Assembly: GCA_048882325.1 (NCBI GenBank)
Contig: JBHLRS010000001.1
Span: 149,657 to 194,773, forward strand
Reading direction: 5' to 3'
Length of the DNA stretch: 45,117 bases
Source: Candidatus Thorarchaeota archaeon
Lineage (GTDB): Archaea > Asgardarchaeota > Thorarchaeia > Thorarchaeales > Thorarchaeaceae
Below are positions 1,138-16,399 of this stretch, one piece after another (the first letter of the stretch is position 1; every line of letters begins with the position of its first letter). Under the pieces are notes generated by a model. It was not told the DNA's origin. It did not search any database and was given only the letters and a program-made list of their open reading frames with translations. A program made the position numbers and the translations under genes.

Positions 1138-1449
1138 TGTGTTCACTCTATACTATCGAATGTTTACAAATTGAAACATTGAACATCGAAGTAATAGCAT
1201 ATATATTTCAATCTGTAACAAATGCATTTCTTTAAAGAACGAAATCTAACTATTATCGGAATACACAAAGGGATAAGGAGAAACAAGTCAGATACTGAAA
1301 GAGGCTTTGTTAATACCGATATTTTCTATTCGACACCAGTCATTATCTCGGTTCATCATGGGATTGCGCTCCCTCGCTAGGTTTTTATCTTACTATTTTC
1401 CAATCGACAGACTGTAAGCAGCTCTGTTCATGGGCTGGAGTGTGCACTC

Positions 1450-3390
1450 ATGGTCTTGAAACCAAAATACAATGAGAAACTCGCTGAGATATTTGGTGAC
1501 CGTCTACTTACAGAGAAGCATGAATTGGTTCTCTCGGCCTTAGACGTTGGGTCTTTACCAAAACAAGTGGGTTGGCTCATGAACACCACCCCTGACGCAA
1601 TTGTCCAACCGCTATCGCCGGAAGAGATCAGTGCTCTATACAAGTTCTGTCAGAAAACAAAGATTCCTTTAGTGCCGAGAGGAGCAGGGACCTCAGGTTA
1701 TGGAGGTGCCATACCTCGAAAGGGTGGAATTGTTGTTGACATACGTCGTATGAACAGAATCCTTGAAGTTGACGAGGAGAACATGACAGTCACTGTGGAA
1801 CCTGGTATCTCTTGGGCCAATCTTCAGTTTGAGTTGAATAGGAAAGGCCTGGATATTCGCTGCTATCCTTCCTCAGGTCTTTCAGCTACAATAGGTGGTT
1901 GGGTTGCTCAGGGAGGAGACGGTATCGGGTCTCTAAAGTATGGAAACGTCAACAAGAATGTTGACAAGATGGAAGTGGTTTTACCAACTGGTAAGATCGT
2001 CAAGACCCAAGACTGTGACTTATTCTGTGACACAGAGGGAATTCTTGGTATCATCACCAAGGTCACACTGAAGATCAAGACCCTCACTCCAATGAAGGTT
2101 GTCGTGTCCAGTTTCGAAGAAAATTATCAGATGGTGCTAGCAATCGAGAAGATACTCGAGGACGGACCGCTCCCCTTTACTATCAAGTTTGAAGAGTCCA
2201 AGTACACTGACCTCAAGAAGGCGATCTGGGAAGGTCATGGGCCATTCCCAATACCCGTGCATCATGGAACGATCATGGTTGTCTATGAGGGCGATGAGGA
2301 CGAGATAGAGGAGGGTGTAAGAGTAGTTGAGGAAGCCACCGAGATGTACAGGGGTGTCGTCTATGGCGAGGATGTCGCTGAACATGAATGGAATGACCGC
2401 TTCTACCCAATGAAAATCAAGAAGAAGGGACCGACCCTAGTTGTGGGTCAAGCATTCGCACCTTTAGAGAATCTCGCGGCTGTACTTGATGACTTCCAGT
2501 TCGAACAGGCTTCAGCAAAGGCTGGAATTGACGGATATGTAAACTCAAAGACCGGGGTTACCATGATGGGATACTTCCTGGAGGATGAACGAAGAAGATT
2601 CTACATGCTCTCATGGTCCCAGAGCTTTGTCATATTCAAGATTGCACAACGTCACGGCGGACACGTACACTCAACGGGAATCTGGTTCGCCAATTACGCT
2701 TCGCAGTACTTTGGCCAACAACGATTGGCACGTATTCGAGCTGCCAAAATCAAGTGGGACAAGAGGGAGATATCCAATCCCGGAAAGATTTTCGCGTATT
2801 GGCTCCCATTCATACTTAGGATTGGCAAGTACTTTATGTGGATATTCTTCGACCTATTCCGAAATGGCTTTGGTCGAATCGCACCTATACTTCTCAAGTG
2901 GCTGCAGAACGTGCCTCCTCTGAAGTGGATGCTCAGATGGGGCAGGGCTCACAGTCCATGGCCGATGCAATACGGCATCGGCTGCTGCATGGTCGACGGT
3001 GCCGCAGGAATTGCACCTCGATGGGACTTTGAGAGGTTCGGTATGCTCCCGCTCTTTGGGCCACGTCAGACCGATGTGCTGTGGATCTCAGGTTCACTGA
3101 CCAAGAAGATGGCTCCACGACTCAGACGTATCTATGAGCAGATGCCTGAGCCCAAGTACGTCATCGCATTCGGGCAGTGCGTCGCCTCTGGTGGTCTCTT
3201 CTGGGAAGGGTACAGTCTCCAAACACCACCTGACACTGTTGTGCCTGTGGATGTCTATCTTCCAGGCTGTCCTCCAAAACCTGCAGACTTCATCAGGGCG
3301 CACCTGATTTTGCAGAACAAGATACGTGCAGGGACAACCCACTGGCAGAAGAAATACGAGAATCAAGACGCGATGGGGATGATACAATGA
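1450..3390 (+). CDS. nuoB: Fusion of a GlcD/D-lactate dehydrogenase-like FAD-linked oxidoreductase (N-terminal ~446 aa) with complex I subunit NuoB (C-terminal ~150 aa)
   Basis: N-terminal PCMH/VAO-type FAD motifs: PDAIVQP, VPRGAGTS, ATIGGWVA, TEGILGIITKVTLK, NPGK. C-terminal NuoB motifs: GIGCCM (tandem Cys), PRQTDVLWISG, RIYEQMPEPKYVIAFGQC, DVYLPGCPP. One uninterrupted frame. Confidence 0.92.
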   Translation: MVLKPKYNEKLAEIFGDRLLTEKHELVLSALDVGSLPKQVGWLMNTTPDAIVQPLSPEEISALYKFCQKTKIPLVPRGAGTSGYGGAIPRKGGIVVDIRRMNRILEVDEENMTVTVEPGISWANLQFELNRKGLDIRCYPSSGLSATIGGWVAQGGDGIGSLKYGNVNKNVDKMEVVLPTGKIVKTQDCDLFCDTEGILGIITKVTLKIKTLTPMKVVVSSFEENYQMVLAIEKILEDGPLPFTIKFEESKYTDLKKAIWEGHGPFPIPVHHGTIMVVYEGDEDEIEEGVRVVEEATEMYRGVVYGEDVAEHEWNDRFYPMKIKKKGPTLVVGQAFAPLENLAAVLDDFQFEQASAKAGIDGYVNSKTGVTMMGYFLEDERRRFYMLSWSQSFVIFKIAQRHGGHVHSTGIWFANYASQYFGQQRLARIRAAKIKWDKREISNPGKIFAYWLPFILRIGKYFMWIFFDLFRNGFGRIAPILLKWLQNVPPLKWMLRWGRAHSPWPMQYGIGCCMVDGAAGIAPRWDFERFGMLPLFGPRQTDVLWISGSLTKKMAPRLRRIYEQMPEPKYVIAFGQCVASGGLFWEGYSLQTPPDTVVPVDVYLPGCPPKPADFIRAHLILQNKIRAGTTHWQKKYENQDAMGMIQ

Positions 3391-3959
3391 AGTTACAACA
3401 AGATAGTGATCCATATTGCATGCTGTTCTTGGGCCTTGTCATCCTGACAGCATTCATCTTCAACTTCGTCTATCTTGGTTTCTTGATACCTTCTGCATCG
3501 TTATTCATTGCAGGTTCTTTGAGCTCGTTGATTGCTGGAATGTCTATTGTAATGGTCTTCTGTCTGATTGGATACCTCAGACCCGAGAAGGGGAAAGGAA
3601 AGAACCTGATGTTCGGGCTATCAGTCTTAGTTGGATTTTTCTATGTGGTGTTTGTCGACCGGTTTGCGTTTGAAGTACCAGCGGCAGGTGACACTCTATA
3701 TCTAGCCTTCTGGGGACTTGGAGGTTGTATCCTTACAGCAGCAGGGTTCTCAATGATGCACAATCGCGAGGAGAGCTACTCTCCGGGAATCATGGACGTT
3801 AGTGCACTTCACTACGGTCCAGAACCGGAACCCGAGCCTGAGCCCGAGTTGGAAGAAGAGGTTGCAGTTGAACCAGAAGCAGAACTAACAATCGTGGAAA
3901 CCACTGAGGAGGTAGAAACTCCCAGTGAACCAGCTACTGATGTTGCTTCTGAAGAGTGA
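3387..3959 (+). CDS. Hypothetical ~4-TM membrane protein with Pro/Glu-rich acidic tail
   Basis: Four hydrophobic segments and a PEPEPEPEPELEEE tail. ATGA overlap with the stop of the nuoB fusion. Confidence 0.8.
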   Translation: MKLQQDSDPYCMLFLGLVILTAFIFNFVYLGFLIPSASLFIAGSLSSLIAGMSIVMVFCLIGYLRPEKGKGKNLMFGLSVLVGFFYVVFVDRFAFEVPAAGDTLYLAFWGLGGCILTAAGFSMMHNREESYSPGIMDVSALHYGPEPEPEPEPELEEEVAVEPEAELTIVETTEEVETPSEPATDVASEE

Positions 3960-3969
3960 ATACAAATAT

Positions 3970-4335
3970 CTACTCGTTGAGCCAATTGAATGCAGCAAAT
4001 CCGATGAGCAGACCAAATGCCATTATTGCAAACAGGATTATTGCTGTGAAGAGTGTATACATGGTGAATAAGAGGTAGACATGAATACCTCCGAGAATCC
4101 CTGTGAGCATTGTAAGTCCCACTCTACTGGATCGAGTATTGGCCATAGCGAATCCGAATGAAGCAACTACGAAAAGCATTCCACCCAGAACAAGGAACCA
4201 ATAGAAGAGAATATTCGTTACGACGACTGTTGTGGTCATGAGTGTCCAGAAATAGACTCCCAGTAGTGCCATCCCAATCAATAATGCCAGATAATAGAAG
4301 AATGTGCCTTCTTCGCCACGAACCAAGTGTATCAC
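3970..4335 (-). CDS. Hypothetical small ~4-TM membrane protein
   Basis: 121 aa, almost entirely hydrophobic helices. Convergent on 3387-3959 with a 10-nt gap. Start codon uncertain (GTG or TTG). Confidence 0.7.
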   Translation of the reverse strand: MIHLVRGEEGTFFYYLALLIGMALLGVYFWTLMTTTVVVTNILFYWFLVLGGMLFVVASFGFAMANTRSSRVGLTMLTGILGGIHVYLLFTMYTLFTAIILFAIMAFGLLIGFAAFNWLNE

Positions 4336-4696
4336 CTGAAATCATAGAGTAGTAAACTGAGATGTTGTTCCGTGCCCCGTGATATATAACTGCTTTGAGT
4401 CTCCAAAAACCCGAATGGTTTTTATCACGGTATTTTTCTACGGCTTCAAGTTTCAGAGTAGATGGTCGGACAATAAACCTCAAAATGGAGTTCTAAAATG
4501 GCCCCTAGAATCCAATTCCGTCAGGTTATTGTCCTGTCATTACGCTGATAACTTAGCACAGAAGGAACCGTGAACCAATGAACAGCAAAACTCGATGTCT
4601 GACTCCTTTTGTCGGTATCTTCAATAACCGCCGTGTTCCGTTCGATGCTATAAATCTCGATACTTGTAAAGTAAAATCAGAGGACGGTCTCAAACT

Positions 4697-5164
4697 ATGA
4701 TGCAGGTGGAAGATAGATTATTTGCCCTTTTCATCCCTGTTTTGATTTGGGCTCTTTTGGCAGTGGTCCTTGTTGTTGTGATGCTCCTTGCATCCTGGGT
4801 ATTGCGACCGCATGTCTTACAAAACTCTGAGAAGACATCTTCCTATGAATGTGGTGAGGAACCTGTGGGACCTGCTCGCATCTCGTATCCGTATAATTAC
4901 TTCATCTATACTGTCCTTTTCGTGGTTGTAGATGTGATGGGGGCATTTCTCTGGCTCATCACTGCTTCAGACATACTTTGGGAAAGTGGTGCTGAAACTG
5001 TTCTGTGGCAACTCACAATTTTCGTTATGATTGTCATGGGCGGAATTGCTTATGTCATGAGAAATCTCCCTGATGCAGCGTTGGACGGGAAGGAAACCCT
5101 TGAAGTCTACCGAAAGGCCAAGGCTGAGAGAGAGCAAGAACAGCATATTGTAGGGGGTCACTGA
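4697..5164 (+). CDS. nuoA: Complex I-like subunit A
   Basis: Three TM helices, KTSSYECGEEP loop, YTVLFVVVDV. Confidence 0.92.
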   Translation: MMQVEDRLFALFIPVLIWALLAVVLVVVMLLASWVLRPHVLQNSEKTSSYECGEEPVGPARISYPYNYFIYTVLFVVVDVMGAFLWLITASDILWESGAETVLWQLTIFVMIVMGGIAYVMRNLPDAALDGKETLEVYRKAKAEREQEQHIVGGH

Positions 5165-5166
5165 TC

Positions 5167-5817
5167 ATGCTACAAAGTGTAAGTGAATTTCTTGATGCAA
5201 TGGAACCAGTAGAGTTTCTTCTGATTGCAGGAGTAGTGTTAGTACTTGCCTATCTTGCCCTCGAACACAAAGAGATAGTCTATGCAGCATTCTTCTTTGG
5301 CTTTATGGCGTCCTTTGTGGCTGGGTTCTTCCTCCTCCTTGAAGCACCTTTCATTGCAGGGATGCAGATTGCCGTCTATACTGGTGGTATTAGTGCACTC
5401 ATTATTTTCGCAGTACTACTTCTTCCGAGAGCACAAGATTCCTCTCTGGAAATATTTACAACTCCTCGAAAACGTCAGGTAGGACTCCTGATGGCTGCCA
5501 TGGTAATGATACTTTCAGGTATCCTTGCATTGATTTTCCCATGGGCTGAGTCATTTGAACAGTCCTTAATTGAGGTATCAAACGACCTGAATGAACTTGC
5601 TAGGTGGCTATGGTCAGACGGTGGCATCTATGTTCAGATGATTGGTCTGATCATGATCACATCATTGGTTGGTGCCATTGCACTTCTGAAGATGGACAAG
5701 GCTGAACAACTATCTTCAATTAAAGGTGAGTTTGGGATAGAAGCTGTTCTCGAATTTGAAGAATTGGAATCTGTCGATGAGGAATCGACGCCTATAGATG
5801 AGGAGGTGGATGACTGA
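5167..5817 (+). CDS. nuoJ: Complex I-like subunit J
   Basis: APFIAGMQIAVYTGGISALIIFAVLL motif; five TM helices; acidic tail. Confidence 0.88.
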   Translation: MLQSVSEFLDAMEPVEFLLIAGVVLVLAYLALEHKEIVYAAFFFGFMASFVAGFFLLLEAPFIAGMQIAVYTGGISALIIFAVLLLPRAQDSSLEIFTTPRKRQVGLLMAAMVMILSGILALIFPWAESFEQSLIEVSNDLNELARWLWSDGGIYVQMIGLIMITSLVGAIALLKMDKAEQLSSIKGEFGIEAVLEFEELESVDEESTPIDEEVDD

Positions 5818-6128
5818 TGGTCCCACTATCTTGGTATCTTGTCCTCTCATTCATGATGATTGGCTTAGGAGGTTATGGCATGATGGTCAAGAGAAACCTC
5901 ATCAGGATTCTCATTGGTGCTGAGATCATGGGTAATGGAGTCAACATTGCTCTTGTAGCTATGTCTCTCTATAGCCCCTCGTTTTCATTCACTGGTCAAG
6001 GATTGATAATACTCATCATTTCTGTTGCAGCAGCACATACTGCCTTGGCTCTAGTTCTGATGCTGATGTACAACCGTCGTTATGATACGGTGGATCTTGG
6101 ACAACCAATCAAAACGGAGGAAACATAG
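5817..6128 (+). CDS. nuoK: Complex I-like subunit K
   Basis: KRNLIRILIGAEIM...GQ...VAAAHTALAL; three TM helices. The second conserved Glu (AAAE) is His here. Confidence 0.92.
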   Translation: MVPLSWYLVLSFMMIGLGGYGMMVKRNLIRILIGAEIMGNGVNIALVAMSLYSPSFSFTGQGLIILIISVAAAHTALALVLMLMYNRRYDTVDLGQPIKTEET

Positions 6129-6635
6129 ATGTCAACAATTGGCAGAGCCATAATCAACAAAGTTCCTGAAGTGACTTCCAATCCGTTGGGTGAAAATAAG
6201 ATAGAGCTAGTTGTTCCGGTTGAGAAGATTCGAGATGTTGTCACGATTATTGAGCAGGAGCTTGAAGATGCATTACCCGAATCTGTGTTTGGTGTAGACC
6301 TCGAGAATGACAAATATGAACTCATCTACATCTTCTGGTCGTGGTCCACTCGGCAGCTAGTTCAACTAAGAGTTGCTCTCGAGGGAGAGAAACCTGAGAT
6401 TGAGAGTGTTTGTGACATATTTCCTGGACTCGAATGGCATGAAAGAGAATTCAGAGAGATGTTTGGAATAGACGTTAGGAATCACCCAGACCCACGGCTC
6501 TTTTTACTACCAGATGAACTCGATGGAGCATATCCAATGCGCAAGCGGTTCAAGACAGACCAAAGTAGACTTCAGGAGACCGGCATTGCACCTCCAAAAC
6601 CTCGACCTAAACCGGAAGGAGGTGACAGCCAGTGA
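6129..6635 (+). CDS. nuoC: Complex I-like subunit C
   Basis: WHEREFREMFGI...HPDPR...YPMRK motif. Confidence 0.92.
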   Translation: MSTIGRAIINKVPEVTSNPLGENKIELVVPVEKIRDVVTIIEQELEDALPESVFGVDLENDKYELIYIFWSWSTRQLVQLRVALEGEKPEIESVCDIFPGLEWHEREFREMFGIDVRNHPDPRLFLLPDELDGAYPMRKRFKTDQSRLQETGIAPPKPRPKPEGGDSQ

Positions 6636-7768
6636 GCCCTGACATTCTTGACGAAGCAATGGAAATCTGGTTCGGTCCTCAGCATGTATCTGCTCACGGT
6701 TGGGCCACCAAATTGACCTTAGTGGGTGACTACATCGTGGAGTGTGACCCGAATGCCGGTTACTTCCACAGGTCTGCTGAGAAAGTCCTTGAGTTCAAGA
6801 ACTTCAGACAAGGTTCACTTGTTCTAGAAAGGATGTGCATGCTTGAAGCATTCCTTGCTGAGCATCCCTATGTTGCGGCTGTCGAGAAAATCGCTGAGAT
6901 AGATGTTCCTGAACGTGCCAAAGTCATGAGGACAATCATGATGGAATTGTCACGACTTCACAGCATCCAGTTCTGGTGGGGCCAATTCAACGCTGAGTTA
7001 GGATTCTTCACAATGGCACTCTGGCCATGGGTTGACCGAGAATATTCACTAGATGTATTTGAAGAGCTTACGGGCTCACGACACACGGTATCCTTCTCGA
7101 CTCCAGGTGGTGTGAAGTACGACTTTAATGACAAATTCATGGACAGACTCCACAGAGCTGTTGATCGATTCGAAGATCGCTTGGCTAAATTCAGAGATAT
7201 GCAGATGGGTAGTCCGACATTTCGAGCGAGAACTGAGGATATCGGTCTCTATGATTATAAACAAGGACTCAAGTGGGGACTGAGTGGTCCTCCGATAAAA
7301 GCATGTGGAATTCCTATGGATCTGAGAAAGGATGATCCAGATCCGAATCTTGCGTATGATATGGTTGACTTTGAGGTTCCTATTACTGAGAATCCGGAGC
7401 ATCCTGGTCAGAGTGACGCTCTCGACAGAATGGAACAGAGGTTCAAGGAAGCTGAGGTTGCTGTCGATATTGTGAAGCAGCTCCTACCCCAGATTCCTGA
7501 TGGTCCAATAGTAGATCCAAAAGCTCGGGGAAAGGCAAACCGACTTCCTGAAGGAGAAGCCTATGCTCGAATTGAAGGAACACGTGGTGTCACTTCATTA
7601 TGGCTTAAAACACAAGAAAAGGCACAGACTGCGTATCGAGCAAAGATACGCGGACCATGCATCGCCTCATACTATGCATTGAAAGATTTGGTGCCCGGTT
7701 CGAAGTTTGCTGACTTTATTGTAATATTTGGAAGCCTAGATCCTTATCCGGGGTGGTGGGATCGCTGA
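6632..7768 (+). CDS. nuoD: Complex I-like subunit D (no NiFe-binding CxxC pairs)
   Basis: GPQHVSAHG, GYFHRSAEK, ELSRLHS, EELTGSR, PGGV, DLRK, EGTRG, RGP, terminal DR. GTG start overlaps the nuoC stop. Confidence 0.9.
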   Translation: MSPDILDEAMEIWFGPQHVSAHGWATKLTLVGDYIVECDPNAGYFHRSAEKVLEFKNFRQGSLVLERMCMLEAFLAEHPYVAAVEKIAEIDVPERAKVMRTIMMELSRLHSIQFWWGQFNAELGFFTMALWPWVDREYSLDVFEELTGSRHTVSFSTPGGVKYDFNDKFMDRLHRAVDRFEDRLAKFRDMQMGSPTFRARTEDIGLYDYKQGLKWGLSGPPIKACGIPMDLRKDDPDPNLAYDMVDFEVPITENPEHPGQSDALDRMEQRFKEAEVAVDIVKQLLPQIPDGPIVDPKARGKANRLPEGEAYARIEGTRGVTSLWLKTQEKAQTAYRAKIRGPCIASYYALKDLVPGSKFADFIVIFGSLDPYPGWWDR

Positions 7769-7779
7769 TGGGAGGTGTC

Positions 7780-8928
7780 ATGTTGCAGTTCGACTTCTTC
7801 GCTTGGCTTTCTGGAATTCCTCAATGGCTTGAGGATTTCCTCTTGCACTTGTGGACAATTGCAAAAGGCATAATCTGGTGGATTTGGGGAATCATCCAAT
7901 GGATCTGGAGCGCAATCTTTGTTCCTAGGAATTTCTTCTTCCTTTTCAGAGCAGTTCTCTTTCCGGGGCTTGTATTTGTTATCATGGCTCTGATATGGGC
8001 TGTTTGGTTTACACGCAAACTTTGGGGCAGAATCCAAGACAGACGTGGTCCAGTTCATATGGGTAAATATGGAGGACTTCAGCTCTTTGCTGATGCCATC
8101 AAATTGATTGCAAAAGAAACCATAATTCCTGAAAAAGCCAAACGTTGGATGTTCAGGTTCCTTCCAGGACTCCTGCTAGTGATTGTCCTATTGCCTTTCG
8201 CCTTCATCCCGTGGGACACTGTTTCCGCGGTAGATGGAGGATGGGCAATTGCTGACCTCTCAGTCAGTCTTGTACTTGTGTTCGCATTCCTGACAGCTGT
8301 ACCAGTAATCGCTCTGATGGCAGGATGGGTCAGTGGGTCGAAATACACGTTGATTGGTGGATTTAGAGCTGCTAACAACCAGTTCGCTGCAGAGATACCA
8401 ATGATCATCTCCACAATCGGTTGTGCTTTCCTAGCTCGTTCACTAAGTGTGTATGAAATCTCAATGGGTCAGACGGGTATTTGGTATGGAATCCTTCTCC
8501 CGATCAATCTGGCAACTTTCTTGGTTGCTGCAATCGCATCTGTGGGAATCTTCCCCTTCGATGCTCCTGTTGCAGATTCCGAGATCATCTTTGGTTGGAG
8601 GACTGAATACACTGGCATCTACTTCACCCTGACTTATTTTGCAGAGTTTGCTGAGCAAATGCTATACTCGGCTCTCATCGTTGCACTATTCTTGGGTGGT
8701 CCGAATGGGTTCACATTCCTTCCAGGTCCAGTCAACTTCATCATCAAGTTTCTGATCACTTTCTTCTTCTTTGTCCTGGTGAGTTCATCGTTCCAGAGAC
8801 TCAGACAGGACCAGATTGTCCACTACTGCTGGAAGTACCTACTTCCACTAGCAATACTGAACGTCATCGTCATCATGTTCGCGGTAGTCTACTTCCCTGG
8901 ACTGATGGCTGCATTGGGGGTTGGTTAA
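7780..8928 (+). CDS. nuoH: Complex I-like subunit H
   Basis: RKLWGRIQDRRGP, GGLQLFADAIKLIAKE, SKYTLIGGFRA, PFDAPVADSE, TEYTG, RLRQDQ. Start moved to ATG 7780 behind a GGAGGTG RBS-like motif. Confidence 0.92.
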   Translation: MLQFDFFAWLSGIPQWLEDFLLHLWTIAKGIIWWIWGIIQWIWSAIFVPRNFFFLFRAVLFPGLVFVIMALIWAVWFTRKLWGRIQDRRGPVHMGKYGGLQLFADAIKLIAKETIIPEKAKRWMFRFLPGLLLVIVLLPFAFIPWDTVSAVDGGWAIADLSVSLVLVFAFLTAVPVIALMAGWVSGSKYTLIGGFRAANNQFAAEIPMIISTIGCAFLARSLSVYEISMGQTGIWYGILLPINLATFLVAAIASVGIFPFDAPVADSEIIFGWRTEYTGIYFTLTYFAEFAEQMLYSALIVALFLGGPNGFTFLPGPVNFIIKFLITFFFFVLVSSSFQRLRQDQIVHYCWKYLLPLAILNVIVIMFAVVYFPGLMAALGVG

Positions 8929-8931
8929 ACA

Positions 8932-9363
8932 ATGGGATTCTTCAGCGTACTAGGTGACTGTTTTCAGATACTGAAACACACATTCAGACAAGTCTTCATG
9001 AGACCGTTCACGTACTTCTACCCCTTTGAAGACCGGATATATCCGGAGCGGACAAGAGGCAGACACATCCACGTTCGTGAGAACTGCACAGCCTGTTCAC
9101 AGTGTGTCAAAGCCTGTCCAGTAATTGCTATCCGGATGGACAAGGAGGATAAGATGTTCGAGAAGGACTGCGCTTTGTACTTTGACTATACTCGCTGCAT
9201 TTTCTGTGGTCTATGTACTCAAGCTTGCAAGTTTGATGCTCTATTCCATACTCCAATTGTCGACTTGAGTGAGGGTGACCGTGAAGATCTCCTATATGGA
9301 CCAGACAAGATAGAAACACTTGACCGAGACCCACTGAAGTGGCGAGGGAGGGAGTTCCGTTAA
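8932..9363 (+). CDS. nuoI: Complex I-like subunit I (2x[4Fe-4S])
   Basis: TYFYPFE, RGRH, CTACSQCVKACP and CIFCGLCTQACK. Confidence 0.93.
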   Translation: MGFFSVLGDCFQILKHTFRQVFMRPFTYFYPFEDRIYPERTRGRHIHVRENCTACSQCVKACPVIAIRMDKEDKMFEKDCALYFDYTRCIFCGLCTQACKFDALFHTPIVDLSEGDREDLLYGPDKIETLDRDPLKWRGREFR

Positions 9364-10911
9364 ATGCAGCTCTTCGATCTTGCATCTATCCCATATGCAG
9401 CACTATCTCTTGCAGTGCTTTTCATTGGAGGTCTCCTGATCTATGCCCTCAAGGACAATTTCGCACACTCTGCAGGAAAGGTAGCTGTCGGATTTTCTGG
9501 AATCGCATCCCTCTTGATGGTCTATCCGTTCTACTTAATATTCTCAGACCCAGAAACACCCTATACTGAATACGCTACATGGTCTGGACTGTTAGAGCAA
9601 TTCGGTCTCAAGCTGGATGGTGTCGCCTTTCCAATCACATTTGCAGTTGTAGTTCTTGGTTTCCTATCAGTAGTCTATGCAGTTGGTTATACAGAGCATA
9701 GTGAGAACAAAGCCACCTTCTTCGCAAATCAGCTCTTCTTCCTGATGGGTATGCAATGGGTCACCCTAGCCACGAATTTAATCGAATTCTTCATCGCTTG
9801 GGAACTAATGCTAGTACCTAGCTACTTCCTAATCCTATTCTGGGGTCTGCCTGAGACCCGGAAGCGGACTGCCATGAAGTTCTGGCTGTACACACAGTCT
9901 GGTGCAGTGTGTATCATGGTTGGTTTTGGCATTCTGTACTCTCTAACTGGTTCTTTTGACTTGGCACTGATTCAACCAGCTATAGCAACTGTTCCTCTAT
10001 ATGCTCTGGTCCCAGGTCTTGGTATCACCTTTGAAACCTTGTTGAAAATTATCTTCCTTCTCCTTGCTGCTGGTTTTCTCGTAAAGATGGCAGTGTTCCC
10101 AATCCATTGGTGGCTCCCACCAGTTCACGCAGAGGCTCCTACGCCAATCTCAGTCCTGCTGTCTGGTGCGATGATTGAAACCGGTGCATATGCGTTAGTA
10201 CGTTTTGGGTCGCTCACACTATCGGTTGCTGCATATCAATTATCGATTTTTGTAGCTGGCTTGGGAGTTATCACCATGTTCTATGGTGGGTTCATGGCAC
10301 TGGCCCAGATTGACATTAAGAGACTCCTCGCATATTCGTCCGTTTCACAGATGGGATATGTGCTCTTCGCTTTGGGTGTCTACGCACCAACGGGTGCGGC
10401 AGGTGGAATGTTCCATCTCATCAATCACGCCTTCTCGAAGGGTCTCTTGTTTATGACCGCAGGTGCTGTCATTCATCAGACTGGACTACGTGACATCACA
10501 AAGATGGGCGGTCTCTCAAACAAGATGCCCATCACTGCTTTCGCAGCAGCCATAGGTATGATGAGCATTGCTGGTAGTCCACCTCTTTCAGGATTTGCCA
10601 GCGAGTGGATGATGTTCCTTGGTGGTTTTGAACGTGCAATTGATGGAGTCGCAATCGCGAGCCTCCCGTTCCTCATATTGACCATCATCGCGGTGTCAAG
10701 TTCAATCCTCAGTGCAGGCTACATGCTACGCTTCTTCTGGAAGGTCTTCCTAGGTCCTCATCCTGATGAGCTAGAAGACGTCAAGGAGAGTTCAAACTCC
10801 ATGACCATACCGATGATCATACTTGGAGTTCTCATTGTAATCTTTGGAATATTCCCAGGACTGGCACTTGATGTCATTGTCCCGGCAGTACAAGGAATCG
10901 TATACCCGTGA
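9364..10911 (+). CDS. nuoM: Complex I-like antiporter subunit M, copy 1
   Basis: WELMLVP, VKMAVFPIHWWLPPVHAEAP, KRLLAYSSVSQMG, GFASEW (NuoM-type Glu in TM12). No NuoL-type C-terminal extension. Confidence 0.82.
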   Translation: MQLFDLASIPYAALSLAVLFIGGLLIYALKDNFAHSAGKVAVGFSGIASLLMVYPFYLIFSDPETPYTEYATWSGLLEQFGLKLDGVAFPITFAVVVLGFLSVVYAVGYTEHSENKATFFANQLFFLMGMQWVTLATNLIEFFIAWELMLVPSYFLILFWGLPETRKRTAMKFWLYTQSGAVCIMVGFGILYSLTGSFDLALIQPAIATVPLYALVPGLGITFETLLKIIFLLLAAGFLVKMAVFPIHWWLPPVHAEAPTPISVLLSGAMIETGAYALVRFGSLTLSVAAYQLSIFVAGLGVITMFYGGFMALAQIDIKRLLAYSSVSQMGYVLFALGVYAPTGAAGGMFHLINHAFSKGLLFMTAGAVIHQTGLRDITKMGGLSNKMPITAFAAAIGMMSIAGSPPLSGFASEWMMFLGGFERAIDGVAIASLPFLILTIIAVSSSILSAGYMLRFFWKVFLGPHPDELEDVKESSNSMTIPMIILGVLIVIFGIFPGLALDVIVPAVQGIVYP

Positions 10912-10921
10912 GGTGATTAAG

Positions 10922-13237
10922 ATGTTGCTAGGTCTACCATACTATCTGATCCTCGTCATTCCACTTGGTGGCTCACTGCTAGTACCCCTCTTTGGAAGAT
11001 ACAGTGTGAAACTTAGAGACTGGGCTCCAGCAATCTTCATGGGTATCACTATGGTCCTCTGTTGGTCCCTCCTACCTGATATTGGACATGGCAATCCAAG
11101 TTGGGACTGGATTAATATTGTCATCAATGGAGAGGATGTTCTTGTTGTTCCATTTGGAATGCTCCTCGACCCCCTCTCTGTGATCATGGCTATTTTGGCA
11201 AGTACACTCTGTTTCCTCATCTATGTGTATAGCACCGAATACATGGCTCATGAAGGAGACCGTAGTCGATTCTTCTTCCTGATGTTAGCCTTCGGTGGTG
11301 GTATGCTTACACTTGTTCTAAGCGACAACCTACTGATTGCGTTTATTGGTTGGGAGATAATGGGCTTTTGCAGCTACGGTCTCATTGGATTCTGGAACGA
11401 CAAGAGGAATCCTCCAGAGGAAGACCCGACTGGATACGAGCAGACTAACCCAATTCTCCAATGGGAGAAAGAGGGAGACTACAACTCCTATGCAGGTACA
11501 AAGGCGTTTATCGTCACGAGAATTGGTGACGCGTTTATGCTAGGTGGTATTTTACTACTGTTCATGTTCACAGGCACATTCCTCTTCTCAGACTTGATGG
11601 ATCCTTTGACTGCTTCTAACGATTGGTGGGTCAACATGTCCTCCGCAGGTGTCTTGATTCCAGCGCTACTTCTCATCTTCTTGGGCGCAATTGGCAAGTC
11701 CGGACAGTTCCCGTTGCAGGTGTGGCTCCCAGAGGCTATGGCAGGTCCCACAAGTGTTAGTGCATTGATTCATGCTGCCACCATGGTGAAGGCTGGAGTC
11801 TATATCACCGCACGGTTCCTAGTCACGATAGTGAGTGCATCAGGAATCGAGGGAGAGATTGCGTCGCCAAGCACTGGTATCACAGCAGCCCAAGCTCTGG
11901 GCTTTGAAGCCGCACTGACCTTTTTCATAATTGTTTCAGTGATTGGTGCAATTACCGCGTTACTGACCGCGACAATGGGCATGGTGTCCAATGAGCTAAA
12001 ACAGATACTCGCTTTCTCAACTTTGTCACAGCTCGGATACATGATGTTGGCGCTCGGAGTGGGTGGTGTTCTACAAGCAGTTCCCGCACTGCATGAAACC
12101 TATAGTCATGCGTATTTGAGTGGCGTGTTACACGTTGTTTCACATGGAGCATTCAAGGCACTTTTGTTCCTCGCATCAGGAGCTGTAATTCATGCTGTGC
12201 ATACGAAATACATCTCAAAGATGGGTGGCCTTCGAAAGCACATGCGGAAGACATTCATAGTCATGTGGGTAGGTGTCCTCGCACTAGCTGGAATCCCACC
12301 ATTCTCGGGATTCTGGTCAAAAGACTCTATCATCGAATACACCTATGAGCTTGCTGCTCACTGGTACAATCCACTTGGATGGGTTCTATTCCTTTTTGCA
12401 GTGCTTGCTGCAGCCTGTACAATCTTTTACAGCTTCAGGTTGATGGGTTTAACGTTTTACGGACCATCAGAACATAGCTCTCACGACTCACATGATTCAC
12501 ATGAATCACATAGTGAAGAGAGTGAAGAGAGTGAAGAGAGTGAAGAGAGTGAAGAACATGAAGACGAAGTGCATCCCAACGATCATCATCAGACACCGCA
12601 TGATCCAGGACCAGCAATGATGGTGCCTCTTTACATCTTGGCAGCTTTCACAATCCTCGCCTTTGTTGTTTTTCCGTTCATCCAGAACATTGCACTTGGT
12701 GAGCCTGAAGCGTGGAGCGATATCATGTCCGAGATGATTCTTGCGAAGCTTACTATGCCTGGAATAATCCCGTTTGCGATCACCCTGGGGGCGTTAGCGG
12801 TTGGAGGTATTCCTGGTTACGTGATTTACATTAGGAACGCTGACCGACCGAACGCTATTATCGGTGACACTGGAATTAGACGCAAGATGTACAACCTCCT
12901 GAAGCACAGGTGGTACATCAATGAGGGATATCACTGGCTTCTCAACAAGTTTCTCAACTTTGCTGAGATGTGGCGTGTCAATGTGGACGACAAGGTCATT
13001 GATGGCATTGACTTCAAGTCTGCCGATGCAGCGATTGCCATATCAACAAAGGTGCGATGGTTCGACGACAATGTAGTCGACGGATTTGCAGAAGGTGTGT
13101 CCACACGGAGTGTAAGGACTTCTGAAACCGGGCTCGCAGAAACTCAGACTGGAAGAATCAATGACTATGTCAGCGTTGTGATGTTTGGAATTGGGATATT
13201 GGTCTTGCTAGCGCTGATTTCACTGGGGGTAATATAG
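10922..13237 (+). CDS. nuoL: Complex I-like antiporter subunit L with extended lateral helix
   Basis: WEIMG, RIGD, GKSGQFPLQVWLPEAMAGPT, HAATMVKAG, STLSQLG, HGAFKALLFL, FWSKD, then a C-terminal helix and QTG plus a final TM. Start placed at ATG 10922 behind GAGGTGA. Confidence 0.93.
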   Translation: MLLGLPYYLILVIPLGGSLLVPLFGRYSVKLRDWAPAIFMGITMVLCWSLLPDIGHGNPSWDWINIVINGEDVLVVPFGMLLDPLSVIMAILASTLCFLIYVYSTEYMAHEGDRSRFFFLMLAFGGGMLTLVLSDNLLIAFIGWEIMGFCSYGLIGFWNDKRNPPEEDPTGYEQTNPILQWEKEGDYNSYAGTKAFIVTRIGDAFMLGGILLLFMFTGTFLFSDLMDPLTASNDWWVNMSSAGVLIPALLLIFLGAIGKSGQFPLQVWLPEAMAGPTSVSALIHAATMVKAGVYITARFLVTIVSASGIEGEIASPSTGITAAQALGFEAALTFFIIVSVIGAITALLTATMGMVSNELKQILAFSTLSQLGYMMLALGVGGVLQAVPALHETYSHAYLSGVLHVVSHGAFKALLFLASGAVIHAVHTKYISKMGGLRKHMRKTFIVMWVGVLALAGIPPFSGFWSKDSIIEYTYELAAHWYNPLGWVLFLFAVLAAACTIFYSFRLMGLTFYGPSEHSSHDSHDSHESHSEESEESEESEESEEHEDEVHPNDHHQTPHDPGPAMMVPLYILAAFTILAFVVFPFIQNIALGEPEAWSDIMSEMILAKLTMPGIIPFAITLGALAVGGIPGYVIYIRNADRPNAIIGDTGIRRKMYNLLKHRWYINEGYHWLLNKFLNFAEMWRVNVDDKVIDGIDFKSADAAIAISTKVRWFDDNVVDGFAEGVSTRSVRTSETGLAETQTGRINDYVSVVMFGIGILVLLALISLGVI
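12479..12556 (+). repeat. In-frame 9-bp tandem repeats in nuoL (SHD/SHE units, then SEE x5)
   Basis: AGTGAAGAG x4 perfect (12512-12547) plus AGTGAAGAA, preceded by TCTCACGAC/TCACATGAT/TCACATGAA. Confidence 0.9.
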
Positions 13238-13238
13238 A

Positions 13239-14864
13239 ATGCAAGTAGATTTTGCCATAAACATCTTGAACTCGTTGCCATTCGGACCACTGGGATTCAT
13301 GCTACTTCTCCCCGTCGTTGCTGCCTTCATAGCTTATTTTGCAGGAAAAGGCGCTAGAGTGATTGCGCTTCTTGTAACCGCTGTTGAACTTGGGCTCTCA
13401 GCCTTGCTTGTCCTTGGTGTCAATCCAATGGCAATCGAGCAGACCACAATACAAAATGCTGGGATGCAATTCGTCGATGTCTTTGTTATGGGCACCATTC
13501 CAATTGGAGAGGACCTAACAACAAACTTTCAATTCATACTGGGAGTTGATGGATTATCAGCAGTGATGCTTCTATTGTCAAACCTAGTTGTGTTCATTGC
13601 AGCCATCAGTTCGAACCACATTCACAAGTCTGAAGGATTCTACTACTCCCTATTCCTACTGCTTCAGGTTGGTCTAATGGGTGTGTTCATGTCATTGGAT
13701 TTGATCGGCTTTTTCATCTTCTGGGAATTGGTTCTCATCCCAATGTTCTTCATCATTGGAAGATGGGGGGAGGAAGGCTGTGAACATGCAGCTGTGAAGT
13801 TCTTCATCTATACTCATCTTGGCTCAGCAGTTATGCTTGTTGCATTCTTTGTGATATACCTGATTGCTGGAGCTGAAAGAAACATCTACACCTTTGCATT
13901 GATTCAGCTCTCTGAAACTGGTCCTGAAGGTTTGAGAACACTCCTACCAACACTGGCACCAATGGTCCAGATCGGGTTTGCATTAGCCATCTTCATGGGT
14001 GCAGGAGTCAAGTTGCCAGTCTGGCCTTTACACAACTGGCTTCCATGGGCTCATGTTAAAGCTCCAACACCAGGTTCTGTTATACTCGCAGGTATCCTAT
14101 TGAAGATGGGCGGTTACACATTCATTCGACTTGGACTCTGGCTCGTGCCCAGTGCCTTTACACGATTGAGTATACCTTTCGCAGCTTTAGCCATCTTCAC
14201 TTGTATCTATGCAGCATTTACTGCAATGGCCCAGACCGATGTGAAAAGTCTCGTAGCGTACACATCAATCAACCACATGTCATGGGTTTTACTTGGTGTA
14301 GCTGTGGCATCATTCGCCATTGGTCTTGATCCTGCAGTTGCAGAGAACCTTCGCTTCATCAATGCCGCGAATCTTGCTCTTCAAGGTTCAATCTTCATGA
14401 TGTTCAGCCACGGAACAATCATCTCTGTAATGTTCATAATGGCCGGGCAGCTCAAATACTCTGCAGGCACACGACAGATTCCTGACATACAAGGTCTCAT
14501 GAACAAGGCACCTCGAATGTCAGCAATCCTTATTCTAGCATCATTTGCAGCCTTTGGTCTACCTGGGTTCAGTGGCTTCATTGCTGAAGCCCTTGTCATA
14601 TTTGGTTCAGTGGTTGTTTATCTCTGGGCTGGACTCATAACGTTCGGAATCTTTGTGACTGTCGGCTATGTTCTCTGGATGTTAAACCGAATGGTGTTCA
14701 GTGATCCGGATCCAGAGAAAGAGGTGTCTGAGGCACCATGGAGCGACCTCATTGCACCAATACTCATGATGATACCAGTCATCCTCTTGGGTGTATGGCC
14801 TGACCTGGTTCTTGACTTCACACAAGCTGTTGTTAACTTCATCATAGGAGGTATTGCACCATGA
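13239..14864 (+). CDS. nuoM: Complex I-like antiporter subunit M, copy 2
   Basis: FWELVLIPMFF, KFFIYT, VKLPVWPLHNWLPWAHVKAP, AGILLKMGGY, GLPGFSGFIAE. Confidence 0.92.
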   Translation: MQVDFAINILNSLPFGPLGFMLLLPVVAAFIAYFAGKGARVIALLVTAVELGLSALLVLGVNPMAIEQTTIQNAGMQFVDVFVMGTIPIGEDLTTNFQFILGVDGLSAVMLLLSNLVVFIAAISSNHIHKSEGFYYSLFLLLQVGLMGVFMSLDLIGFFIFWELVLIPMFFIIGRWGEEGCEHAAVKFFIYTHLGSAVMLVAFFVIYLIAGAERNIYTFALIQLSETGPEGLRTLLPTLAPMVQIGFALAIFMGAGVKLPVWPLHNWLPWAHVKAPTPGSVILAGILLKMGGYTFIRLGLWLVPSAFTRLSIPFAALAIFTCIYAAFTAMAQTDVKSLVAYTSINHMSWVLLGVAVASFAIGLDPAVAENLRFINAANLALQGSIFMMFSHGTIISVMFIMAGQLKYSAGTRQIPDIQGLMNKAPRMSAILILASFAAFGLPGFSGFIAEALVIFGSVVVYLWAGLITFGIFVTVGYVLWMLNRMVFSDPDPEKEVSEAPWSDLIAPILMMIPVILLGVWPDLVLDFTQAVVNFIIGGIAP

Positions 14865-16399
14865 TGCTTCAACTCGTAGATATCGCGAACCAAATTCGTG
14901 AATTACTTGAACCATTAAAGGATGTGTTACTTGACATAGTTCCTGCAAGCTGGCTCATGTCACTTCCTGCACTGACACTGGTTCTCTTCGCAATCTTGGC
15001 ATTAATCGTCGGTATGCGGTATAATCCGCTAGGACTAAGCTTCGTTGGTGTCTTACTTGCAGCTCTTGAGATGATAATCCTGAACCCTCTTGATTCTGAG
15101 ATTGCTGCCATTACAGGAGGAGTTTCGTTTGGACAGTTTGCCCGAGATCCTATGGCTGACTTGTTCATCTATATTATTCTGATAGTTGGTTTTCTGGTCT
15201 TGATGTCCTCAACTCTCTATGGGGGTGACAAGGGGCCATACAACTTCATGCTATTGATATCCTTCGCTGGCGCCATATGGGTCGTGATGGCTACTGATCT
15301 CGTGGGACTCTTTTTAGCGTGGGAATTGATGTCAACACCAACATACATACTTGTAGCATTAGGACCTGGTCGAGAAGCAATTGATGGAGCGACCAAGTAC
15401 TTTGTCATGGGACTTCTTGCAACAATGATGATGGTGTTTGGTATAGCCATAATATACGGGGTCACTGGTCAAACCAATCTTGTGGAGGTTGCAACTTATG
15501 TTGATGGAGTCTGGACTGGATCGACTCCAAATGCGGCATACACGATCCTTCTTGCAGTGGTCTTATTCATCGTTTCATTCGGATTCAAGGTGGGTGTATT
15601 CCCAGGATGGCAATGGGTGCCTGATGCTTATGCCAGTGCAGATGGGAGTGTTACAGCATACCTTGCCGGAGGTTCCAAGAAAACGGGAGTTGGTGCATTG
15701 ATGAGAATTCTCGTTGTAGGATTTGTCATCGCTCAGACTCAATGGACAGTCGTCATTGTTGGAGTGGCAATCCTCACAATGATTATTGGGAATGTACTCG
15801 CACTCGCTCAAAGGGACATCATGAGGATGCTTGCGTATAGTAGTGTTGCCATGATGGGATATCTCTTCATTGGCCTAGCATCAGCTATGAATCCCGTTGA
15901 TGTTCCGAGTACGACTGCATATACTCTAGGTGTAGGTGCAGCTCTCTTCATGGCATTCACCCATGCAATCATGAAGACCCCCGCATTCATTTTAGTGTGG
16001 GTTCTATCAATCGCTCTTTCGAAAAGAATTACTTATGATGACCTTGCTGGACTTAGCAAGAGAGCTCCACTTGCAGCGGGGCTATTCACCATTCTAATGT
16101 TATCCTTAGCTGGAATGCCTCTCACAGTCGGGTTCTATTCAAAACTGCTACTCTTCCTGAGTGCGGCAGCTGCAGGTATGTGGTGGCTCGCGCTGATTGG
16201 ACTCCTTAACTCAGTGTTCTCTTTGGGCTACTATTTGCGAGTCATAAGGTACGCCTATATGGAAAAAGCCACGGATGATACTAGTATCAAGTTGCCAACG
16301 GTTCCACTTGTGGCGGTAGTTCTCTGTGTCATCGCTGTGATTGGGCTATTCTTTGCTCCGTGGATAATCTTAGATTATGCGTATGCAGCTGTCCCATAA
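14861..16399 (+). CDS. nuoN: Complex I-like antiporter subunit N
   Basis: WELMSTPTYIL, KYFVMG, GFKVGVFP...WVPDAY, RMLAYSS, SLAGMPLTVGFYSK, YYLR. Confidence 0.92.
   Translation: MMLQLVDIANQIRELLEPLKDVLLDIVPASWLMSLPALTLVLFAILALIVGMRYNPLGLSFVGVLLAALEMIILNPLDSEIAAITGGVSFGQFARDPMADLFIYIILIVGFLVLMSSTLYGGDKGPYNFMLLISFAGAIWVVMATDLVGLFLAWELMSTPTYILVALGPGREAIDGATKYFVMGLLATMMMVFGIAIIYGVTGQTNLVEVATYVDGVWTGSTPNAAYTILLAVVLFIVSFGFKVGVFPGWQWVPDAYASADGSVTAYLAGGSKKTGVGALMRILVVGFVIAQTQWTVVIVGVAILTMIIGNVLALAQRDIMRMLAYSSVAMMGYLFIGLASAMNPVDVPSTTAYTLGVGAALFMAFTHAIMKTPAFILVWVLSIALSKRITYDDLAGLSKRAPLAAGLFTILMLSLAGMPLTVGFYSKLLLFLSAAAAGMWWLALIGLLNSVFSLGYYLRVIRYAYMEKATDDTSIKLPTVPLVAVVLCVIAVIGLFFAPWIILDYAYAAVP

Follow-up and report, generated by a model that had tools for sequence, protein, structure and literature searches.

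In this article, I describe a flavin adenine dinucleotide (FAD)-dependent oxidoreductase that is joined in one reading frame to NuoB, the complex I subunit that carries cluster N2. The gene lies in a stretch of 45,117 nucleotides (nt) from a Candidatus Thorarchaeota archaeon (assembly GCA_048882325.1, contig JBHLRS010000001.1, positions 149,657 to 194,773 of the forward strand), referred to here as the window; coordinates without a prefix are positions in it. The FAD-NuoB fusion is real and conserved in the Thorarchaeia, is apparently undescribed, and is found together with a complex-I-type core that has four antiporter-like subunits. My reading, which I hold tentatively and with a little less than even confidence, is that the encoded machinery would be a head-less complex (one without an NADH or F420 module) that oxidizes ferredoxin and translocates ions, with the tethered pair of the flavin domain and an HdrD-like protein as its second redox terminal, in other words a hard-wired version of the proposed 'Fpo-like + HdrD(/GlcD)' association.

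The FAD-NuoB fusion and its conservation in the Thorarchaeia

Pfam and NCBIfam profiles were run on six-frame open reading frames (ORFs), and the fusion gene (1450..3390, plus strand) encodes 646 amino acids (aa) without an internal stop. It divides into an FAD domain of the GlcD/D-lactate dehydrogenase fold (aa 1-450, nt 1450-2799), an aromatic and amphipathic linker with three helices (aa 451-505, nt 2800-2964) and a NuoB domain bearing the four N2 cysteines (aa 506-646, nt 2965-3390). The Pfam matches are FAD_binding_4 at aa 48-186 (E 2e-42), FAD-oxidase_C at aa 216-447 and Oxidored_q6/NuoB at aa 524-617 (E 1e-22), and the NuoB part exceeds the cut-offs of both NuoB subfamilies in NCBIfam, with 173 bits for a cut-off of 116 and 164 bits for one of 143. 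The N2 cysteines (CC, GQC and GCPP, including the tandem CC) are invariant across 34 fused orthologues and 50 stand-alone NuoBs. Fold family, subfamily cut-offs, the tandem CC with two further N2 cysteines and the W-G-R-x-x-S-x-W-P lead-in are all shared with canonical NuoB/Nqo6/PSST/NdhK, whereas a 500-aa flavoprotein plus linker takes the place of the N-terminal ~30-40 residues. The original prediction, made by a model from the DNA letters and their translated reading frames, held that NuoB exists here only as a fusion, and this extends to the genome, where the C-terminus of the fusion is the sole PF01058 match in 3.6 Mb at 93% completeness.

The linker of 55 aa is aromatic and basic, has three predicted helices and no true transmembrane (TM) segment, and among the 34 fused orthologues it is 87% conserved as compared with 76% for the FAD domain; it is not a floppy tether, since it is better conserved than the flavin domain that it carries. 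An unfused orthologue terminates exactly at "...PPLKWI", the point where the canonical NuoB lead-in of the fusion (LRWGRxxSPWP) starts. A single-chain AlphaFold2 model of the fusion reached a mean pLDDT (per-residue confidence) of 87.4 and a pTM (predicted TM-score) of 0.72, with the FAD-binding region mostly above a pLDDT of 90.

A survey of the class covered 87 species genomes in 17 genera (labeled in the style g1-g17), and full-length, stop-free fusions of 72-94% identity were found in about 50 of these genomes, representing 12 of the 17 genera. One further genome carries the fusion split into two overlapping frames at about aa 434 (G024:C5:93253-95186), which could reflect a frameshift, an assembly error or a genuine split. 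Within a collection of 5.8 billion proteins, every protein of this architecture is labeled Thorarchaeota or Asgard and all are about 646 aa long; when the NuoB part was used to query a library of 1.84 billion representatives, the fusion appeared as one cluster and as the sole FAD-NuoB form among the best 150 matches. A second NuoB fusion candidate (P0247, 533 aa) was rejected as a gene-model artefact on a 38-Mb eukaryotic chromosome.

The fusion also travels with the Nuo core: orthologous NuoD (at least 71% identity) is found in the same genomes, usually about 5.2 kb downstream on the same contig. Genera g13, g15 and g16 have neither the fusion or its FAD gene, nor the orthologous NuoD, nor the HdrD-like gene discussed below, and they possess only NuoD paralogues of 31-34% identity beside stand-alone small subunits of 150-220 aa, that is, group-4-hydrogenase-like complexes. 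In g14, an unfused flavoprotein of 499 aa is present and the orthologous Nuo core is not. The survey was also read for relatives without the fusion and for a stand-alone nuoB serving the Nuo operon, and what it returned was a fusion conserved across genera and no such nuoB.

The flavin domain and its HdrD-like partner

The flavin domain has a VAO/PCMH-type fold (FAD_binding_4 plus FAD-oxidase_C) and its best Foldseek match is mouse LDHD (TM-score 0.84-0.86 on the target); by sequence and fold it groups with that enzyme, with LctD of the Ldh-EtfAB complex and with alkyl-dihydroxyacetonephosphate synthase. Its closer branch comprises the fused and unfused thorarchaeial proteins, a Bathyarchaeota "glycolate oxidase" and proteins of Bacillota and Methanoperedens that combine FAD, iron-sulfur (FeS) and CCG domains. 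In D-2-hydroxyacid dehydrogenases, the metal site is marked by the motifs HxGDGNxH and E-H-G. The glutamate of EHG aligns to a valine here, and HxGDGNxH was not found anywhere in the branch, which has GG-x-x-[HY]-S-[TV]-G as its own motif. With the metal ligands missing from the whole branch, the label "lactate" is unsafe, and the equivalog profiles for GlcD (TIGR00387, 145 against a cut-off of 568) and YdiJ (83 against 1350) are likewise far from being reached. An organic substrate pair had been suggested for the fused flavin; one such as lactate/pyruvate is therefore not indicated.

What the domain does appear to have is a partner. An HdrD-like protein with one Fer4_8 and two CCG domains (Pfam), two [4Fe-4S] sites and cysteine columns invariant in 29 sequences is encoded at G000:C1:144992-146212, which is 3.4-4.7 kb before the window, and in relatives the orthologue is mostly a divergent neighbor about 200 bp from the fusion gene. 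In g14, a 408-aa HdrD-like gene lies directly upstream of, and co-oriented with, the unfused flavoprotein. The HdrD-like gene is 66% identical to that of g14 and 78% identical between two fusion-bearing genera, as compared with 35% to other HdrD paralogues, and its distribution over genera is that of the flavoprotein: present in 13, absent from g13, g15, g16 and g17. Furthermore, the nearest relatives of the flavin domain outside the Thorarchaeia (33-40% identity) are mostly single chains of 900-1030 aa (in Bacillota, Chloroflexota and Methanoperedens) in which FAD, FeS and CCG parts are already fused, and, by this Rosetta-stone argument, the flavin domain would pair with the HdrD-like protein. 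These chains and E. coli YdiJ-type proteins share the metal-free FAD branch, and the HdrD-like partner corresponds to their C-terminal half; in the Thorarchaeia, the FAD domain is instead joined to NuoB, with the FeS/CCG half encoded on its own.

Binding between the two is supported by a complex model in which the flavin domain (aa 1-450) and its HdrD-like partner reach an interface score (ipSAE) of 0.82 over three runs (0.81-0.82), as compared with 0.00 for the best of three controls; the mark used for this score is reached by 58 of 80 solved complexes and by 2 of 110 mismatched pairs, counts that are only rough since own alignments were used. The runs share at least 94% of contacts, the partner has a pLDDT of at least 89, and the modeled interface sets the FAD-binding loops (aa 79-81 and 142-145) against the Cys-rich, ferredoxin-like part of the HdrD-like protein (residues 13-28, 38-68 and 84-88). 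This partner had been missed at first; as the flavin domain has its own HdrD-like FeS partner, the natural route from the FAD would lead into HdrD-type clusters, and a direct link between FAD and N2 is hypothetical.

Several other genes surround this pair. In the present genome, a secreted protein with PKD/Ig repeats lies between the HdrD-like and fusion genes (window 1-1146, minus strand, continuing upstream to G000:C1:146357-149665, or L012:16358-19666; a 1102-aa ORF on L012, with 382 aa read in the window), and it looks like a lineage-specific insertion into a shared promoter region, given the ~200 bp that separate the two genes in relatives. In two genera, the HdrD-like gene is immediately followed, in the same orientation, by genes for a DUF7530-PNPOx fusion and a small PNPOx-like protein (a split barrel of the flavin mononucleotide/F420 type; L012:13166-14921 and L006:6776-8528, both minus strand), which are possible further members of the module. 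Four further GlcD-like flavoproteins are encoded 16-32 kb upstream of the window (L011, L012; G000:C1:117788-133485), three of them paired with an HdrD-like gene and the fourth followed by a 399-aa gene without a family match; an amine-oxidase-type flavoprotein is also part of this array, and the same array is found in the complete genome L006. The paralogous family is large.

A head-less core with a non-canonical acceptor site

All 11 types of core subunit are found by Pfam and NCBIfam (A, B, C, D, H, I, J, K, L, M and N), with B only as the fusion and M twice, as predicted. The nuoD-like gene (6632..7768, plus strand, PF00346) encodes 378 aa that read ERMCMLE where complex I has DRLDY and DPYPGWWDR at the C-terminus, and the thorarchaeial orthologues read ER[M/L/I]CM[L/V]EA at the DRxDY site, with the quinone tyrosine replaced by methionine in all of them. 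The cysteine pairs that bind NiFe (RxCGxC and DPCxxC) are also missing, with one cysteine left in the first motif and none in the second, and the earlier description of a NuoD with neither feature is correct; both histidines of the beta1-beta2 loop are retained (GPQHVSAHG). The hydrogenase family PF00374 is matched at 21 bits, below the cut-off of 25.8, and all NCBIfam NuoD/FpoD equivalog cut-offs lie above the scores obtained (the best is NF004739, 309 bits against 360). Placed by HMMER scores to PDB chains and by NCBIfam, the protein is closest to MbsL of the membrane-bound sulfane-sulfur reductase (MBS; 6u8y_L, 197 bits), then to the complex I 49-kDa subunit (176) and to the membrane-bound hydrogenase MBH (150). 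These motifs and scores support a site that would fit neither a hydrogenase nor a canonical quinone reductase.

The membrane arm has the order M-L-M-N, both M subunits passing TIGR01972, which confirms the four antiporter-like subunits first noticed. In NuoL, TM15 is followed by about 105 aa before the last TM segment, an extended lateral helix that fits an extra antiporter module, and there is a 26-aa internal repeat (DDKVIDG/DDNVVDG); the earlier idea that the extra antiporter goes with a large redox gap is consistent with this four-membered arm and its lengthened helix. Also in NuoL, a loop holds a low-complexity insert rich in His, Asp, Glu and Ser (SHDSHDSHESHSEESEESEE...HEDEVHPNDHH, window ~12470-12610, aa ~545-590), which could bind metal.

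The same NuoD site is not confined to genomes with the fusion. A sister clade, found in another Asgard metagenome-assembled genome (MAG) labeled Heimdallarchaeota, has a NuoD 45-49% identical to the thorarchaeial one that reads ER[L/I]S[M/L]LEA at this site (Ser for Cys) and also lacks the quinone tyrosine, and both clades share the J-K-C-D-H-I-M-L-M-N order and the long NuoL. NuoB of the sister clade stands alone, is encoded elsewhere and is 67% identical to the thorarchaeial NuoB domain. As the sister clade has the non-canonical acceptor site, the arm with four pumps and an unlinked nuoB, all three are older than the fusion, which, from this comparison, is a thorarchaeial innovation. A flavoprotein was also considered as a neighbor in the sister clade, where the gene after the stand-alone nuoA-nuoB pair proved to be a B12/radical-SAM protein. 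Two further cases came to light: a second NuoD paralogue in the Heimdall-labeled Asgard MAG that has the sister complex (L030:9010-10098), 48% identical to the window NuoD and separated from any other nuo gene by at least 9 kb in both directions, and an unrelated metagenome contig (L010:8544-20909) that encodes a head-less complex in the order A-B-C-D-H, then a 663-aa flavoprotein (Pyr_redox_2/Fer4_20 plus Fer4) in the NuoI position, then J-K and four antiporter-like genes. The latter adjoins CODH/ACS and MTHFR genes and is a different case of a flavoprotein within a complex-I core.

Neither NuoE/F/G nor FrhB/FpoF was found in the window, as first reported, and the sole genomic matches are on other contigs. 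Contig 8 carries an operon in the order NuoE, NuoF, FdhA/NuoG-like, NfnA-like and NfnB-like, with an additional C-terminal ferredoxin domain (Fer4) on the NuoF-like protein, and from this gene make-up, with its molybdopterin FdhA/NuoG-like and NfnAB-like members, it looks like a soluble bifurcating enzyme; NuoEFG of Asgard archaea has also been modeled as separate complexes (bioRxiv 10.1101/2024.07.04.601786). Contig 2 encodes a lone FrhB_FdhB protein of 355 aa with an N-terminal Fer4 domain, and its orthologues in genera without the complex (43-53% identity) are as diverged as those in genera that have it. The locus thus has no input module of its own, and NuoEFG-like and FrhB-like genes do exist on other contigs, but their contexts and distribution argue against a dedicated role.

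Similarly, a search for quinone biosynthesis in the rest of the genome, one of the checks first proposed, returned no MqnA/D, and no NarI/HdrE-type cytochrome b was found in the 93%-complete genome. Together with the missing NuoD tyrosine, these negatives are compatible with an exit other than the quinone pool. Four UbiA-family genes are present in the genome. A trio of a geranylgeranyl-reductase-like gene, a polyprenyl synthase and a UbiA gene is a conserved neighbor of the HdrD/FAD pair in both the fused (L012:9710-13140, G000:C1:139709-143139) and unfused state (L007:5004-8568), and it could belong to ordinary archaeal lipid synthesis or be a hint of a prenylated carrier or lipid substrate.

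Proposed mechanism and competing explanations

In the mechanism that I tentatively prefer, the conserved linker of amphipathic helices joins NuoB covalently to an FAD enzyme of the GlcD/D-lactate dehydrogenase fold, which would be associated with the membrane and work with the HdrD-like protein encoded next door. Reduced ferredoxin from fermentation would deliver electrons at NuoI, which by analogy with NDH-1 and Fpo-like complexes is the likely entry point, and these would pass on to N2 in the NuoB domain. The tethered FAD/HdrD-like module would then be the second redox terminal, most probably the place where electrons pass, at the CCG or flavin site, to an acceptor of the disulfide type or to some other soluble acceptor, and less probably the entry from an organic donor, and the large drop from ferredoxin to the acceptor would power translocation of H+ or Na+ by the M-L-M-N arm. 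The sequence data show the gene content, the fusion, the conservation and joint distribution of the fusion, the Nuo core and the HdrD-like gene, and intact cofactor motifs, and binding of the FAD domain to the HdrD-like protein has support from the model; I infer the ferredoxin donor, the electron transfer between N2 and the FAD/HdrD pair, the direction of flow, the identity of the acceptor and the pumping of ions. A stronger form, which I consider improbable, would be a quinone-independent pump in which electrons run from ferredoxin to NuoI, N2, the fused FAD and the CCG clusters of the HdrD-like protein, or in reverse, with the chemistry ending in the flavin/disulfide module and not in the quinone pocket.

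A number of points weigh against the ferredoxin-driven complex with a tethered terminal. The known complex-I-type enzymes depend for coupling on chemistry in the pocket formed by NuoB, NuoD and NuoH, and none is known in which electrons leave by way of a flavin attached to the NuoB N-terminus. The sister clade combines the same unusual NuoD site with a stand-alone NuoB, so that the site is not a result of the fusion, and on one of its contigs the operon comes after genes for an HdrE/NarI-like membrane protein and an HdrD-like protein, a hint of a lipophilic carrier. Since the unfused enzyme has the amphipathic tail too, the module may simply be a membrane-surface enzyme. In the AlphaFold2 single-chain model, the linker pLDDT of 56-68, together with the pTM already given, leaves the arrangement of the domains uncertain; the flavin domain lacks the metal ligands of 2-hydroxyacid dehydrogenases; and in a genome that is 93% complete, absences are no proof.

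In the main competing explanation, the pocket of NuoB, NuoD and NuoH is where the core passes electrons to a lipophilic carrier, which would resemble a quinone or phenazine and may be tightly bound, and the FAD/HdrD-like module is an independent enzyme of the membrane surface that shares this carrier; the fusion would then serve only co-localization, like a covalent supercomplex, without direct transfer between N2 and FAD. I regard this as doubtful, albeit a possibility to be taken seriously. CCG proteins of the GlcF/GlpC/LutA/HdrD type commonly exchange electrons with membrane carriers, the tail of the unfused enzyme is joined by relatives with hydrophobic C-termini, the sister-clade operon behind its HdrE/NarI-like protein and HdrD-like gene speaks for such a carrier, both loop histidines of NuoD are kept, and the prenyl-lipid trio is conserved beside the HdrD/FAD pair; however, that trio is equally the standard archaeal lipid set, neither MqnA/D nor a NarI/HdrE-type cytochrome b was found in the genome, methionine replaces the quinone tyrosine in all thorarchaeial orthologues, and the linker is conserved beyond what is expected of a mere tether. 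Clearly less probable, and unlikely in my judgment, is an ordinary Fpo/Fqo- or Nuo-type enzyme with its input module (the FpoF-like FrhB homologue or NuoEFG) encoded elsewhere and the flavin fusion as a secondary add-on. There is a parallel in Methanosarcina, where fpoF is encoded apart from the complex, and both the lone FrhB_FdhB protein on contig 2 and the NuoE, NuoF and NuoG/FdhA-like genes on contig 8 could supply such a module; in addition, the NuoD/FpoD and NuoH/FpoH families head the NCBIfam ranking. Nevertheless, the FpoD and FpoH cut-offs are far from reached (250 bits against 600 and 224 against 475), and the FrhB-like gene, being equally present at the same divergence in genera without the complex, was rejected as a dedicated FpoF in the main interpretation, such a role being unlikely for this very reason; the contig 8 NuoF operon is typical of soluble bifurcating enzymes, and Asgard NuoEFG forms separate complexes (bioRxiv 10.1101/2024.07.04.601786).

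It may also be asked whether the flavin domain is a redox terminal at all, or instead a structural or assembly domain or a relay between one- and two-electron steps, which I consider very unlikely. Plant complex I binds the VAO-family enzyme GLDH as an assembly factor, GLDH on a complex I intermediate is among the PDB sequence matches (7a24_z), and the canonical substrate metal site is missing, but the FAD-binding motifs are strongly conserved (with the E value and pLDDT given above), the whole metal-free branch is kept with FeS/CCG partners in many phyla, and the specific HdrD-like partner co-distributes with the domain. Of still slightly lower probability, in my estimation, is a variant of the MBS-type sulfane-sulfur (polysulfide) reductase, in which ferredoxin electrons would reduce a sulfur compound at the modified NuoD/NuoB pocket and the FAD/HdrD module would take the thiol or disulfide by-product. 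The NuoD match to MbsL of Pyrococcus furiosus (PDB 6U8Y) is the best among solved structures, R-x-C-x-x-E stands in place of the first NiFe motif in both (RMCMLE versus RICVPE), and Thorarchaeota were reportedly first described with predicted sulfur reduction. In contrast, the C-terminal cysteine that MBS keeps is a tyrosine here (DPYPGW), the sister clade has Ser for the remaining Cys, the membrane arm is of the Nuo type (A, J, K, H, L, M, M, N, with the lateral helix) and not the Mrp/Mbs type, and MBS has no flavin module.

Locus layout and neighboring genes

The fusion gene is followed by a gene for a 190-aa membrane protein (3387..3959, plus strand; about four hydrophobic segments by hydropathy and an acidic C-terminal tail), whose start overlaps the fusion stop (ATGA), and then by a 121-aa four-TM protein on the minus strand (3970..4335), between the fusion unit and nuoA. 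Neither matched a Pfam or NCBIfam family. Both small membrane ORFs are nonetheless real genes, since they have syntenic orthologues in the complete genome of another genus (41% and 55% identical, respectively), and the two proteins are candidate accessory subunits. The core continues on the plus strand with nuoA (4697..5164, PF00507), nuoJ (5167..5817, PF00499), nuoK (5817..6128, PF00420), nuoC (6129..6635, PF00329), the nuoD-like gene, nuoH (7753..8928, PF00146, E 3e-84) and nuoI, which has two [4Fe-4S] ferredoxin-type motifs (8932..9363, Fer4 families). The antiporter-like genes are the first nuoM (9364..10911, PF00361; TIGR01972, 300 against a cut-off of 264), nuoL (~10922..13237, PF00662 and PF00361; TIGR01974, 453 against 407), the second nuoM (13239..14864, by Pfam; TIGR01972, 403 against 264) and nuoN (14861..16399, PF00361; best NCBIfam match NDH_I_N at 278 bits, below its cut-off of 333), all on the plus strand. 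The nuoL ORF opens with TTG at 10844, and the likelier start is an ATG at 10922 or 10871.

The genes were initially taken for a single operon, which does not hold. The unit of the fusion and the 190-aa gene is set apart from nuoA by the conserved minus-strand 121-aa gene plus about 360 nt, and with a minus-strand gene between two plus-strand units, the genes must be transcribed as two or more units. Exactly this arrangement recurs in another genus, in a complete genome of 3.16 Mb. In a search of sequencing runs for the stretch, no RNA data set was listed, and only DNA contigs from two studies contain it. An element of the form GGTTTTTATC-N4-TATTTT lies 50-70 nt before the fusion start (1380..1399, plus strand), with a second copy at 4417-4436 in the intergenic region between nuoA and the 121-aa gene. 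The copies agree at 16 of 20 positions and are the sole two matches in the window to a pattern that was itself derived from them; the pair recurs in one other species of the same genus, eight other loci (three of the same genus) gave nothing above shuffled controls, and the element is absent from the complete genome L006. It is a weak candidate for a shared promoter element. Right after nuoN, and convergent with it, is a gene for a Ras-family small GTPase (16418-17008, minus strand; Pfam Ras, E 5e-42), a typical Asgard signature gene; the names of homologues likewise point to the Thorarchaeota/Thorarchaeia.

Relation to known systems and significance

The closest published idea is that of an Fpo-like 11-subunit complex that acts with HdrD as a ferredoxin:heterodisulfide oxidoreductase, proposed for Methanomassiliicoccales, with GlcD added in Methanomethylicia, Bathyarchaeia and Korarchaeia (PMC4153887; PMC10667645; PMC6421429). 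The thorarchaeial system resembles it in its complex-I-type core without NuoEFG/FpoF, in an HdrD-like CCG protein without HdrE, in a GlcD-family flavoprotein with HdrD and in ferredoxin as the presumed donor; it differs in that the flavoprotein is fused to NuoB with the HdrD-like gene separate and divergent (the association in other archaea being itself only a proposal), in having four instead of three antiporter-like subunits and in a NuoD without the quinone tyrosine. The heterodisulfide CoM-S-S-CoB is an unlikely substrate here because the host is an Asgard archaeon of a group, the Thorarchaeia, that is regarded as non-methanogenic (PMC6421429; PMC10667645). MBH-like complexes with a peripheral Hdr domain have also been described in Asgard archaea (bioRxiv 10.1101/2024.07.04.601786).

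The membrane arm, in turn, recalls the '2M' homologues of complex I, reportedly described by Chadwick et al. in the ISME Journal in 2018, which have an additional NuoM and a lateral helix of NuoL that is longer by about the width of one subunit. The M-L-M-N order, the two NuoM flanking NuoL, the ~26-30 extra lateral-helix residues and the 26-aa repeat are common to both, whereas the 2M homologues are bacterial NADH:quinone enzymes with NuoEFG and the thorarchaeial complex is archaeal and head-less, with a NuoD site that is not of the quinone type and with the NuoB fusion.

Surveys of archaeal fusions and complex I variants name only B-C, C-D and B-C-D fusions and none with a flavoenzyme, and no description of a flavoprotein-NuoB fusion was found in a full-text search of openly available literature; the fusion is likewise unmentioned in the preprint on Asgard respiratory complexes (bioRxiv 10.1101/2024.07.04.601786). 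The claim of a new energy-converting complex therefore survives for the fusion, but not for a wholly new kind of complex: the Fpo-like + HdrD/GlcD idea is already in the literature (PMC10667645, PMC6421429, PMC4153887), and the fusion is better seen as its hard-wired variant. Databases label the protein "NuoB"; such names, "D-lactate dehydrogenase" among them, conceal how the protein is built and probably point to the wrong substrate.

Complex-I-type enzymes are built of exchangeable modules. The input and output modules known for them all either bind without a covalent link on the side of NuoI and NuoG or work inside the pocket of NuoB, NuoD and NuoH; a flavoenzyme fused to the N2 subunit attaches at a new point. 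In addition, this gene fusion supplies the first evidence of the Rosetta-stone type for a physical association of the "Fpo-like + HdrD/GlcD" kind, long postulated for Methanomassiliicoccales, Methanomethylicia, Bathyarchaeia and Korarchaeia. If the improbable quinone-independent pump were true and ran in reverse, it would spend ion-motive force to reduce ferredoxin with electrons from an organic or thiol donor of mid potential, so as to feed the Wood-Ljungdahl pathway, and would be a membrane alternative to electron bifurcation in an archaeal lineage related to eukaryotes. The fused gene, its HdrD-like partner and the core of 11 genes give bioenergetics a defined target for ferredoxin-dependent, and possibly quinone-free, energy conservation in Asgard archaea.

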